A DNA stretch of 64,000 nt from the NCBI RefSeq assembly GCF_017348835.2, contig NZ_CP071375.1. One strand, written 5' to 3'. Position numbers and translations under genes: made by a program. The DNA comes from Escherichia coli (lineage in GTDB: Bacteria > Pseudomonadota > Gammaproteobacteria > Enterobacterales > Enterobacteriaceae). The notes beneath the pieces are model-generated. The model was not told where the DNA came from. It saw only the letters and a list, made by a program, of their open reading frames with translations, and did no database searches. Shown piece by piece: positions 4,724 to 8,034 of the stretch (position 1 is the first letter of the stretch; each line of letters opens with the position of its first letter).

Positions 4724-4899
4724 GCTGTATTCCTTATTTGGACCATACAGATAGAGAAACCGGTACAGATGAGGCTAAAAAACCGGATGCAGATGCTGTT
4801 TTAACCTGTCTGTATGTTAAATAAAACTAATATTTGCATCTGTATTGTGAACTGCCAGAAGGCGGATGATGAAGCCTCTGAAAGATGAGGAGGCAGCAG

Positions 4900-5064
4900 A
4901 TGGAATTTCACGAAAACAAAGCCAAAACGCCGTTTATCAGACTTGTGCAACTCTGGCAGGCGGTGAGGCGTTGGCGGCGGCAAATGCAGACCCGACGGGT
5001 GTTACAGCAGATGAGTGATGAGCGGCTGAGGGATATCGGGTTACGCAGGGAGGATGTGGAGTGA
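4900..5064 (+). CDS. yjiS: DUF1127 small protein YjiS
   Basis: ATG at 4900 preceded by GAGGAGG; 54 aa MEFHENKAKTPFIRLVQLWQAVRRWRRQMQTRRVLQQMSDERLRDIGLRREDVE; below the ORF-track length cutoff. Confidence 0.75.
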   Translation: MEFHENKAKTPFIRLVQLWQAVRRWRRQMQTRRVLQQMSDERLRDIGLRREDVE

Positions 5065-5415
5065 ACTATGGGCGGCGTGTTGGCAAATGCTGCCTGTCTG
5101 CATTCAAAATTGCTACAAAATCCAACCATAAAAGTCGTTTACAACATATTTTTCTGATTTACATACAGATAATGACCTGAGCTGTCTCTCTGGGGGTCAT
5201 CATCTATGCGTCCGGGGGATCTGTCACAAAAAGGAATAGAACAAAATCATCAGCGGTGAATAAAGCGATTCGTTTTAGATCACATTAATGAAATTTTTGT
5301 ATCAAAAATTAGTTATCGCGCTCACAGTTCATAATGAAACAATTCTCTGCAAATAGATAACCGAAGCTTCGTTGCTAGTATCAATTCGCTAATTATACAC
5401 CTGCCAGAGGATACA

Positions 5416-7957
5416 ATGAAAAATAGAAATCGTATGATCGTGAACTGTGTTACTGCTTCCCTGATGTATTATTGGAGCTTACCTGCACTGGCTGAGCAGT
5501 CGTCAAGTGAGATAAAGATTGTTCGCGATGAATACGGCATGCCGCATATTTATGCCAATGATACATGGCACCTATTTTATGGCTATGGCTATGTAGTAGC
5601 ACAAGATCGCCTTTTTCAGATGGAAATGGCACGTCGCAGTACTCAAGGGACTGTCGCGGAAGTGCTTGGCAAAGATTTTGTGAAATTTGATAAAGATATC
5701 CGTCGTAACTACTGGCCGGATGCTATCCGGGCGCAAATTGATGCCCTTTCCCCAGAGGATATGTCCATTCTGCAAGGCTACGCTGATGGAATGAATGCCT
5801 GGATTGATAAGGTAAATACCAATCCAGAGACGCTCTTACCAAAACAGTTTAATACATTTGGCTTTACTCCTAAGCGCTGGGAACCGTTTGATGTCGCGAT
5901 GATATTTGTGGGCACCATGGCAAACCGCTTCTCTGATAGCACTAGCGAAATTGATAATCTGGCACTGCTAACGGCTTTAAAAGATAAATATGGTGTATCA
6001 CAAGGCATGGCGGTATTTAATCAGTTGAAATGGCTGGTAAACCCATCAGCGCCAACCACTATTGCCGTACAAGAGAGTAGCTACCCACTTAAATTTAATC
6101 AGCAAAACTCGCAAACAGCAGCTCTGTTGCCACGCTACGATTTACCTGCACCAATGCTTGACCGACCAGCAAAAGGGGCGGATGGCGCACTGCTGGCGTT
6201 AACAGCAGGGAAGAACCGGGAAACTATTGCTGCACAATTTGCACAGGGTGGTGCCAATGGTCTGGCGGGGTATCCAACGACCAGCAATATGTGGGTGATC
6301 GGCAAAAGCAAAGCCCAGGATGCGAAAGCAATCATGGTAAATGGTCCGCAGTTTGGCTGGTATGCGCCTGCGTATACTTATGGTATTGGTCTGCACGGTG
6401 CTGGTTATGATGTCACTGGCAATACACCATTTGCCTATCCTGGGCTGGTTTTTGGTCATAATGGTGTGATTTCCTGGGGATCAACGGCAGGTTTCGGCGA
6501 TGATGTCGATATTTTTGCTGAACGGCTGTCGGCAGAGAAACCAGGCTACTACTTGCATAATGGTAAGTGGGTGAAAATGTTAAGCCGTGAGGAAACCATT
6601 ACGGTGAAAAATGGTCAGGCAGAGACCTTTACTGTCTGGCGTACGGTGCATGGCAACATTCTCCAAACTGACCAGACGACACAAACGGCTTACGCTAAAT
6701 CCCGCGCATGGGATGGTAAAGAGGTGGCGTCTTTGCTGGCCTGGACTCATCAGATGAAGGCCAAAAATTGGCAGGAGTGGACACAGCAGGCAGCGAAACA
6801 AGCACTGACCATCAACTGGTACTATGCTGATGTAAACGGCAATATTGGTTATGTTCATACTGGTGCTTATCCAGATCGTCAATCAGGCCATGATCCGCGA
6901 TTACCCGTTCCTGGTACGGGAAAATGGGACTGGAAAGGGCTATTGCCTTTTGAAATGAACCCTAAGGTGTATAACCCCCTGTCGGGATATATTGCTAACT
7001 GGAACAATTCTCCCCAAAAAGATTATCCCGCTTCGGATCTGTTTGCCTTTTTGTGGGGGGGGGGCAGATCGCGTTACGGAGATCGACCGACTGCTTGAGC
7101 AAAAGCCACGCTTAACTGCTGATCAGGCATGGGATGTTATTCGCCAAACCAGTCGTAAGGATCTTAACCTGAGGCTTTTTTTACCTACTCTGCAAGCAGC
7201 GACATCTGGTTTGACACAGAGCGATCCGCGCCGTCAGTTGGTGGATACATTAACACGTTGGGATGGCATCAATTTGCTTAATGATGATGGTAAAACATGG
7301 CAGCAGCCAGGCTCTGCCATCCTGAACGTTTGGCTGACCAGTATGTTGAAGCGTACCGTAGTGGCTGCCGTACCTATGCCATTTGATAAGTGGTACAGCG
7401 CCAGTGGCTACGAAACAACCCAGGACGGCCCAACTGGTTCGCTGAATATAAGTGTTGGAGCAAAAATTTTGTATGAGGCGGTGCAGGGAGACAAATCACC
7501 AATCCCACAGGCGGTTGATCTGTTTGCTGGGAAACCACAGCAGGAGGTTGTGTTGGCTGCGCTGGAAGATACCTGGGAGACTCTTTCCAAACGCTATGGC
7601 AATAATGTGAGTAACTGGAAAACACCTGCAATGGCCTTAACGTTCTGGGCAAATAATTTCTTTGGTGTACCGCAGGCCGCAGCGGAAGAAACGCGTCATC
7701 AGGCGGAGTATCAAAACCGTGGAACAGAAAACGATATGATTGTTTTCTCACCAACGACAAGCGATCGTCCGGTGCTTGCCTGGGATGTGGTCGCACCCGG
7801 TCAGAGTGGGTTTATTGCTCCTGATGGAACAGTTGATAAGCACTATGAAGATCAGCTGAAAATGTACGAAAATTTTGGTCGTAAGTCGCTCTGGTTAACG
7901 AAGCAGGATGTGGAGGCGCATAAGGAGTCGCAGGAAGTGTTGCACGTTCAGAGATAA
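5416..7957 (+). pseudogene. pac: penicillin G acylase (Ntn-hydrolase; signal peptide, alpha subunit, spacer, beta subunit starting SNMWVIGK), interrupted by +1 frameshift in G10 run
   Basis: ORF 5416..7098 and ORF 6992..7957 together give the full PGA sequence; frames differ by +1 at G run 7055-7064; 2542 nt = 846 codons + stop + 1. Confidence 0.88.
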
Positions 7958-7970
7958 TTAAGCCCGAAAG

Positions 7971-7997
7971 CCCTCATATTCTGGAGGAATATGAGGG
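7971..7997. terminator. hairpin between convergent pac and yjiA (ccctcatattc-loop-gaatatgaggg), probable bidirectional terminator
   Basis: 11-bp inverted repeat directly after the pac stop. Confidence 0.45.
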
Positions 7998-8034
7998 TGA
8001 TAAAGTCTCAAGTATTGTGATGTTGGAGGGCTGG

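Follow-up and report, generated by a model that had tools for sequence, protein, structure and literature searches.

The immigration control region (ICR) is a variable locus defined by the framework genes yjiS and yjiA (PMC3874165, PMC3874153, and PMC2481252). The annotation of Escherichia coli K-12 gives the order yjiR, yjiS, yjiT, yjiV', mcrC, mcrB, symE/symR, hsdS, hsdM, hsdR, mrr, yjiA, yjiX, and btsT, which bears out the K-12 order assumed in the original prediction on the DNA studied here. The genome paper on E. coli W described pac as replacing hsdMRS, mcrBC, and mrr (PMC3032704); that pac stands where K-12 has its restriction cluster is already known from the literature and is textbook-level for strain W. 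The pac product, penicillin G acylase (PGA), is a periplasmic Ntn-hydrolase whose proposed role is to scavenge esters and amides that are phenylacetylated, feeding the pathways for phenylacetate and hydroxyphenylacetate catabolism, and the pac promoter is reported to be under the control of PaaX and CRP (PMC9493321). This link to catabolism replaces the earlier description of pac as a secondary-metabolism gene.

The window analyzed here is a 64-kb stretch of DNA in which the ORF list and the PGAP annotation of the near-identical PE164 give the order mdtM, rpnD, yjiR, yjiS, pac, yjiA, yjiX, and btsT. The segment addressed by the original prediction (4724–8034) extends from the base following the yjiR start codon to the base preceding the yjiA stop codon. 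The genes yjiR, yjiS, yjiA, yjiX, and btsT had been described as all present and co-linear with K-12, which holds for gene content and order but not for intactness, as yjiR is frameshifted. The left framework gene, yjiS (DUF1127; 4900–5064, plus strand), and the right framework gene, yjiA (a GTPase; 8035–8991, minus strand), encode proteins with 92.6 and 98.4% amino-acid identity, respectively, to their K-12 counterparts, and the co-linearity of yjiX and btsT (9002–11405, minus strand) with K-12 was seen in the ORF list, the annotations, and blastn. The junctions with K-12 were aligned using blastn. The left limit of homology is at window position 5064, the final base of the yjiS stop codon (K-12 locus position 7916), and the right limit is at 8035, the first base of the yjiA stop codon on the minus strand (K-12 locus position 23910). 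Between these breakpoints at the two stop codons there is only pac with its promoter region, as had been proposed, and the yjiS–yjiA interval measures 2,970 bp in the window versus 15,993 bp (yjiT to mrr) in K-12.

The window locus shares with the K-12 ICR (mcrCB-symER-hsdSMR-mrr) the chromosomal site, the framework genes yjiS and yjiA, and the linkage to serB, which lies within the same 64-kb window according to the co-linear PE164 annotation. In contrast, the variable segment bounded by yjiS and yjiA consists of nine genes in K-12 and one in the window, with no detectable similarity between the two, and the window segment carries neither restriction-modification nor modification-dependent restriction genes. 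A tblastn search of the 64-kb window with all of the K-12 ICR proteins gave no match (best E = 0.087), and a sensitive blastn search with the K-12 variable segment retrieved only short REP-like repeats; remnants of the ICR genes, sought in the window at both the protein and DNA levels, were not found. The absence of yjiT, mcrCB, symE, hsdSMR, and mrr from this site was thus borne out. The same holds for restriction genes elsewhere in the window, none of which was found by tblastn, in the PE164 annotation, or by PADLOC, which gave no hits on the neighboring genes rpnD, yjiS, yjiA, and yjiX. The PGAP annotation of PE164 lists housekeeping and hpa genes only in the region, and pac is the sole gene in the interval. 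The lack of matches to the K-12 ICR proteins and the presence of pac alone in the interval led us to conclude that the window locus is a non-defence allele of the ICR site, as in E. coli W.

The pac gene (5416–7957, plus strand) encodes the penicillin G acylase precursor, and its disruption had been missed in the original prediction. As read, it is split into two ORFs (5416–7098 and 6992–7957) by a +1 frameshift in a run of ten G residues (G10; 7055–7064, plus strand) and is out of frame after codon 549, representing a pseudogene or an "off" allele as written. Removal of one G restores an ORF of 846 amino acids with the layout of a signal peptide (residues 1–26), an alpha subunit (27–235), a spacer (236–289), and a beta subunit (290–846). 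The chains of E. coli PGA in 1AI4, 1GK9, and 1PNK align end to end with the alpha and beta subunits of the restored product. The beta subunit begins with Ser290-Asn-Met-Trp, in agreement with the PGA precursor architecture, which has an N-terminal Ser nucleophile; in the window as read, the frame is interrupted and the beta subunit is incomplete. The G tract encodes Trp-Gly-Gly-Ala within the WGGADR motif. With the +1 shift at G10, 11 aberrant residues are followed by a stop codon at 7096–7098, and 297 residues of the catalytic beta subunit are lost. In-frame alleles possess either G9 or the interrupted sequence GGGGTGGTG at this position. The G10 tract is one of four runs of at least eight G/C (or at least nine A/T) in the 64-kb window.

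The 351-bp region upstream of pac has a GC content of 38%. It starts with an AT-rich spacer (5065–5258, plus strand), which is specific to the E. coli pac allele and is without a homolog in the K-12 or Kluyvera-type loci, and continues with a conserved region comprising the promoter, 5' UTR, and ribosome-binding region (5259–5415, plus strand). The latter exhibits 72–78% identity to the pac upstream sequences of Kluyvera, Lelliottia, Silvania, and Buttiauxella. It contains GATTCG..AGATCACA, CTCACAGTTC, an extended -10-like element (TGCTAGTAT), and a ribosome-binding site (AGAGGATACAATG). A 10-sequence alignment showed invariant blocks in the region, a pattern that is compatible with control by PaaX and CRP but falls short of proof. 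CRP-like matches upstream of pac have two to three mismatches each and are no evidence by themselves. Upstream of pac, a consensus promoter and terminator scan was uninformative, and an Rfam scan of 4500–8300 yielded only sub-threshold snoRNA noise. Between the convergent pac and yjiA genes, folding revealed a hairpin with a 13-bp stem (7970–7998). The fold of 7950–8040 has a ΔG of -29.6 kcal/mol (z = -3.8), which was equaled by none of 200 shuffled sequences. The hairpin is probably a terminator shared by pac and yjiA, and was not called by the consensus terminator scan because it has no T-run.

The other frameshifted gene, yjiR (3309–4723, minus strand), encodes a MocR-type regulator with an aminotransferase-like domain and is read as two ORFs (3893–4723 and 3309–3896). 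K-12 YjiR matched the window in two frames in a tblastn search (residues 1–270 and 267–470), and PGAP calls yjiR of PE164 "frameshifted". The cause is a (TC)6 dinucleotide repeat (3915–3926, minus strand), which is (TC)5 in K-12 and most strains. Among 3,550 genomes, an exact 80-nt match to the (TC)6 region was found only in PE164 and UTME-9.

The frameshift of pac might be a product of sequencing rather than of evolution. Indel errors are classically associated with long runs of G. The window and PE164 show no mismatches over 64 kb and differ only by two 1-base indels, one of which is in pac, where PE164 has G9 and an intact 2,541-nt gene. The other, a missing C at 22451, is present in none of 481 genomes, suggesting a less accurate source sequence. 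Given these two indels and the uniqueness of the second, the assembly behind the window may be less polished, and the G10 may be erroneous; the strain would then have G9, a functional pac, and an ordinary E. coli W-type pac allele. The identical G10 allele, however, is shared by 213 other complete genomes, which originate from numerous laboratories and countries, and the PE164 record could equally hold the error. In addition, the (TC)6 frameshift of yjiR is common to the window and PE164, so the lineage does have real slippage mutations. We consider an assembly or polishing error a serious candidate, with a chance just under even.

Variation of the tract is widespread in the species. In complete pac-bearing genomes, the alleles were GGGGTGGTG (386 genomes), G9 (315), G10 (213), G8 (57), and G11 (28). 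The tract puts pac out of frame in at least 298 of the 999 genomes with a classifiable pac allele, all within the 613 homopolymer-type alleles, and others carry IS1203. PGAP labels the non-G9 homopolymer alleles "frameshifted". Tract length varies even between haplotypes that are 0–4 SNPs apart over 5,761 aligned columns, and, of ten frameshifted alleles lacking an IS, nine showed no further disruption of the frame. Ribosomal or transcriptional slippage as a rescue of the G8 and G10 alleles is speculative. Part of this population variation may be technical, with some of the length calls being sequencing errors, since many G8 records appear from their accession and strain-name series to be PacBio-only assemblies. 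The outgroup genera have GGC GGN at the tract, and no long G run is present in any pac locus of Kluyvera, Silvania, Lelliottia, or Leclercia; G9 is therefore derived. Judging from these data, the G9 run is derived and unstable in length within one major class of pac alleles in E. coli, and slippage frequently switches pac or leads to its loss.

Such a tract recalls the contingency genes of Campylobacter, Neisseria, and Haemophilus. Like them, pac has an intragenic G8–G11 run (a homopolymer of at least about eight bases) that sets the frame and is polymorphic in length, with both on and off frames, among close relatives. The homopolymeric-tract paradigm is that of Campylobacter (PMC8355987). 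The contingency genes of the three genera concern a surface structure or a methyltransferase, whereas pac encodes a catabolic enzyme and its switch is putative. A true phase-variation switch would imply that the slippery G9 was selected for turning the acylase off and on reversibly. The origin of G9 from an interrupted, stable GGT GGT ancestor would fit this idea, as would the 298 out-of-frame copies, the recurrence of length changes among near-identical haplotypes, and the scarcity of other lesions in the frameshifted alleles, which is expected if the "off" states are young or reversible. Reversion is, however, not demonstrated in the data, and the same pattern is predicted by an ordinary mutational hot spot within a gene that is dispensable. 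The O111 copies already destroyed by IS1203 still drift in tract length (G9, G10, and G11), and selection is thus unnecessary to explain the variation. Furthermore, 386 genomes keep the stable interrupted allele. A literature search turned up no relevant report of a homopolymer, a frameshift, or phase variation in pac, and PMC11017572 makes no mention of slippage. We therefore regard a selected switch as unlikely. A related proposal is similarly doubtful, namely that two synonymous substitutions (GGT to GGG) gave rise to the G9 run in approximately 60% of pac-bearing E. coli and that slippage in this run now turns the gene on and off. If it were true, pac would belong to a very small number of simple-sequence contingency genes in E. 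coli, a mismatch-repair-proficient species that is not known for homopolymeric-tract contingency loci, and the switch would suggest that both the cost and the benefit of penicillin G acylase fluctuate.

The original prediction also implied a polarity, shared with the wording of the W genome paper, in which pac filled a site that normally holds defence genes. This takes K-12 as the norm. The pac allele, counted as a match to at least 80% of the interval with both junctions, was found in 1,067 of 5,426 complete E. coli genomes, and the K-12-type segment in 538; K-12 represents a minority state, and the pac allele is about twice as common among complete genomes. Moreover, pac adjoins yjiA-yjiX-btsT in Kluyvera (six species, in which it is also bounded by yjiS and yjiR), Silvania, Lelliottia, and Leclercia. 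In these four genera, pac likewise converges on yjiA-yjiX-btsT, with conservation of the proximal promoter region and a protein identity of 80–87%. Their loci differ in having extra neighbors, which we named from the ORF translations as an AraC-family regulator, a LysE-type exporter, and an aldehyde dehydrogenase, together with a small toxin-antitoxin-like pair, named in the same manner, in Silvania. The DNA identity between the window and Kluyvera is 77.6–78.5% for pac, 75–77% for yjiR, and 84–86% for yjiA. From the position beside yjiA in four other genera and a divergence like that of its neighbors, pac looks like an old resident of the site rather than a recent filler.

Some observations would nevertheless suit a scenario in which pac was recently imported by horizontal transfer and displaced a restriction cluster that was ancestral at the site: K-12 lacks pac, as do the Escherichia species representatives covered by a scan of genome contigs, the GC content drops to 38–45% upstream of pac and in its 5' part, and the E. 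coli pac haplotypes are much alike (at most 59 differences in 5,761 columns). The synteny in the four genera speaks against an import, as does the promoter region, which is conserved to the same degree as pac itself. The identity of pac to Kluyvera, lying between those of yjiR and yjiA, indicates no recent donor among the sampled genera. In addition, no mobile-element scars were seen around 5065–8034: a search for flanking direct repeats, target-site duplications, an IS element, or an integrase found only short repeats at the chance level, such as an 11-mer common to the ends of yjiS and pac (chance expectation of approximately 1.5 in 3.5 kb). A recent import thus appears improbable, more so than a selected switch.

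Taken together, we put the probability at about 90% that the window carries the "pac allele" of the enterobacterial ICR variable locus, as in E. coli W, with pac reading as inactive and its tract being length-unstable. According to this reading, yjiS and yjiA would enclose a segment for which the species has alternative versions unrelated to one another. The pac version would consist of the 194-bp spacer, the 157-bp conserved promoter region, the penicillin G acylase gene, and the terminator hairpin, with no defence gene. The alleles are presumably swapped via homologous recombination in the conserved flanks; a mobile-element signature is absent. An intact pac would, on the basis of the literature on its function, supply a periplasmic Ntn-hydrolase releasing phenylacetate-type acids from amides or esters, which fits the adjacent hpa cluster, 3.8 kb from pac. 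The addition of one G to the G9 run would shift the frame after codon 549 and leave pac inactive as read. That pac is often dead is relevant to annotators and strain engineers, with the industrial strain W having the stable interrupted allele, and the unstable tract may offer a cheap experimental handle on fluctuating selection for PGA in the gut.

The window can finally be placed among the described non-restricting alleles. As far as the summaries of Sibley & Raleigh 2004 in PMC3874153 and PMC12707154 convey, the "empty" ICR of E. coli C is likewise a non-restricting allele, occupying the same cassette site and about 13 kb shorter than that of K-12; E. coli C is reported there to keep a remnant of a type I R gene, whereas the window has no such remnant. 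The closest counterpart is E. coli W (ATCC 9637): between mdtM and tsr, its genes, among them the hpa cluster, follow the same order as those of the window, its junctions coincide, and its cassette is 99.3% identical. The two differ in that the tract of E. coli W is interrupted (GGGGTGGTG) and its pac is intact (WP_000797400.1), while the window has G10 and both pac and yjiR are frameshifted.

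The immigration control region (ICR) denotes the variable segment that yjiS and yjiA delimit and that is linked to serB (PMC3874165, PMC3874153, PMC2481252). In the window, an open reading frame (ORF) list covering positions 1-14000 gave mdtM (411-1652, minus strand), an intact rpnD-type gene (2110-3066, plus), yjiR as two overlapping ORFs (3893-4723 and 3309-3896, minus), yjiS (4900-5064, plus), a penicillin-acylase reading frame in two pieces (5416-7098 and 6992-7957, plus), yjiA (8035-8991, minus), yjiX (9002-9205, minus), and btsT (9255-11405, minus), with hpaC and hpaB beyond btsT. 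The K-12 gene order stated in the original prediction proved correct: the MG1655 annotation reads yjiR, yjiS, yjiT, yjiV (a pseudogene), mcrC, mcrB, symE/symR, hsdS, hsdM, hsdR, mrr, yjiA, yjiX, and btsT. Alignment with the K-12 stretch by blastn mapped the breakpoints to position 5064, the final base of the yjiS stop codon, and position 8035, the first base of the minus-strand yjiA stop codon. Between these junctions lie 15,993 bp in K-12 versus 2,970 bp in the window, with no similarity detectable by blastn. Over the whole window, the sole similarity of more than 40 bp to the K-12 variable segment is a REP-like element 3' of btsT (11455-11527), which is 86% identical to the hsdM-hsdR intergenic sequence.

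In a tblastn search of the whole window with all nine K-12 ICR products, the best E value was 0.087 and hsdS gave no match at all; YjiA, YjiS, and YjiR matched their K-12 counterparts at 98%, 93%, and 99%, respectively. The whole 64 kb aligned to the chromosome of E. coli PE164 (NZ_CP114128.1) with no mismatches and two single-base indels, and this near-identity allowed the PGAP annotation of PE164 to be transferred to the window. Apart from housekeeping genes, the transferred annotation consists of the hpa cluster and pac, the penicillin G acylase (PGA) gene; genes for restriction, modification, or other defence functions are absent from it. These analyses confirmed that pac alone occupies the interval, that none of the K-12 ICR genes lies between yjiS and yjiA, and that no restriction genes occur elsewhere in the window, as had been claimed.

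The pac gene reads as inactive in the window because of a run of ten G residues at 7055-7064, subject to a read-level check. As written, the frame is lost after Gly549 and continues for 11 aberrant residues to a stop at 7098, which takes away 297 residues of the beta subunit. Removal of one G yields a 2,541-nt ORF whose 846-aa product aligns over its full length with the solved chains of E. coli PGA (alpha subunit, 27-235; beta subunit, 290-846, beginning at the nucleophile Ser290). At the tract, PE164 has G9 and an intact pac. The allele shared by PE164 and the window also carries a private non-conservative substitution, R744W (7645-7647; TFWANNFF versus the conserved TFRANNFF), which is absent from the other 18 alleles and from Kluyvera. 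PE164 and the window differ at just one further place, the hpaR-hpaG intergenic region, where the window lacks a C at 22451; the C is present in PE164, in E. coli W, and in all 481 genomes matching the region, none of which shows the deletion. This deletion is a private mutation or else an error of assembly, and it bears on the trust to be placed in the G10 call. Since the two sequences differ by two private single-base indels and no substitution, the window is probably a differently polished assembly of the PE164 strain or of a sibling. The odds on whether G9 or G10 is the true version of the run are near even.

The same tract varies throughout the species. Of 5,426 complete E. coli genomes, 1,074 carried pac, as detected with allele-specific queries of 78-81 nt. 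Exact matches numbered 386 for the in-frame tract GGGGTGGTG and 315 for G9, which is also in frame; the out-of-frame tracts G10, G8, and G11 gave 213, 57, and 28, respectively. Out-of-frame tracts thus make up 298 of the 613 homopolymer-type alleles (49%), and pac reads as inactive in roughly 30% of the classifiable pac-bearing complete genomes. The G8, G10, and G11 genes inspected are designated 'frameshifted' by PGAP, and of the ten frameshifted alleles that lack an insertion sequence (IS), nine are otherwise open. Enzyme activity is presumably lost in the out-of-frame alleles. In a neighbour-joining tree built for 20 loci from 5,761 ungapped columns with 152 variable sites, near-identical haplotypes carry unlike tract lengths: PE164 (G9) versus the window (G10, 0 differences) versus G3/10 (G8, 4 differences); WCHEC020031 (G10) versus L3452210II (G11, 1 difference); and, within the O111:H8 group, 08-4455 (G10), SF26 (G11), 1074-2 (G9), O91 RM7190 (G10), and UTME-9 (G11), with 0-4 differences. 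Counterparts of the tract were seen in the comparison loci L004-L006, L008, L010, L011, L013-L015, and L018-L020. The G run in pac is a population-wide hot spot of length change, and our literature search found no description of this variation.

The length changes presumably arise by strand slippage. Part of the variation may be technical, since many G8 records appear to be PacBio-only assemblies, judging from accession and strain-name series; G10, however, is consistent over many laboratories and countries. E. coli HS carries G8 in two independent assemblies. Selection is not needed to explain the variation, because the IS1203-disrupted pac of O111 strains still shows G9, G10, or G11. The IS1203 insertion is a second, independent route to pac inactivation; in many O111 genomes it sits in the 5' third of the gene (about 1214-2502 in the loci of O111:H8 strains 1074-2 and SF26 102-1). 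The tract site reads GGC GGN in the outgroup genera and GGT GGT in E. coli W; G9 is therefore a derived state reached by two synonymous changes. The industrial strain W carries the stable interrupted allele. We consider the length-unstable G run the one point worth carrying forward.

The 351 bp 5' of pac have a GC content of 38%. For the distal 194 bp (5065-5258), neither K-12 nor the other genera compared gave a match. The proximal 157 bp (5259-5415) share 72-78% identity with the pac upstream sequences of Kluyvera, Lelliottia, Silvania, and Buttiauxella; among their invariant blocks are the ribosome-binding region and an extended -10-like TGCTAGTAT. This conservation supports the claim that the interval contains pac together with its promoter region. 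According to the literature, pac is controlled by CRP and by PaaX, which acts as a repressor, and PGA scavenges phenylacetylated compounds (PMC9493321). The convergent pac and yjiA are separated by 77 bp containing a hairpin with a 13-bp stem (7970-7998; folding energy of the region -29.6 kcal/mol, z = -3.8). No flanking direct repeats, IS elements, or integrase genes were found around the interval, an Rfam scan of it returned no family, and PADLOC gave no match on the neighbouring genes.

Several other features were observed in the window. The yjiR frameshift is an expansion of (TC)5 to (TC)6 at 3915-3926; among 3,550 genomes, (TC)6 is common only to PE164 and to UTME-9, a strain of unrelated haplotype, and thus seems to have arisen twice. 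The rpnD gene, for a recombination-promoting nuclease of the Rpn family, is intact (318 aa) in the window and in E. coli W, and its K-12 counterpart is annotated as a pseudogene (yjiP/yjiQ). A complete hpa (4-hydroxyphenylacetate catabolism) cluster extends from 11798 to about 22974, between btsT and tsr and 3.8 kb from pac; it is absent in K-12, and its layout matches that of E. coli W. Between yjjW and yjjV (45726-46139), a 101-bp unit of REP/BIME-like sequence is repeated in tandem 4.1 times with 94% matches.

The pac interval is more frequent than its K-12 counterpart: 1,067 of the 5,426 complete genomes (19.7%) give matches over 80% or more of the 3,311-nt interval, both junctions included, versus only 538 (9.9%), many of them laboratory K-12 derivatives, for the K-12 variable segment at the same threshold. 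The cassette flanks are unusually diverged from K-12 (about 95% identity on the left, 3-5064; 97.7% on the right, 8035-11420), whereas pac-bearing strains differ mutually by at most 1%. The variable site therefore lies within a haplotype block, which agrees with the 'bastion of polymorphism' idea. Alleles are presumably exchanged by homologous recombination in the conserved flanks.

In a synteny scan with one genome per species, pac was the immediate upstream neighbour of yjiA-yjiX-btsT in six Kluyvera species, which also have yjiR and yjiS on its other side, and it adjoined yjiA-yjiX-btsT in the same way in Silvania, Lelliottia, and Leclercia. The DNA identity of pac to Kluyvera (77.6-78.5%) falls between those of yjiR (75-77%) and yjiA (84-86%), and the promoter is conserved as much as pac itself; a long-resident orthologue therefore fits better than a recent import displacing restriction genes. 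The original prediction was confirmed for the structure of the locus and partly supported in its interpretation; the polarity it implies, with pac displacing restriction genes, seems the less probable one. Judging from ORF translations, the pac neighbourhoods of Kluyvera and Silvania (4336-11349 and 2072-5767 of the respective loci, L022 and L026) encode an AraC-family regulator divergent from pac, a LysE-type exporter, an aldehyde dehydrogenase, and a small outer-membrane-like protein, and that of Silvania also a small toxin-antitoxin-like pair, whereas the E. coli cassette has none of these genes. The E. coli W locus has the same gene order as the window from mdtM to tsr, with a cassette 99.3% identical to that of the window, and the W genome paper describes pac in place of hsdMRS, mcrBC, and mrr (PMC3032704). 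A 2025 review names a 'penicillinase' as one of the ICR genes without a defence role (PMC12707154). The pac-only arrangement was therefore already known, from E. coli W.
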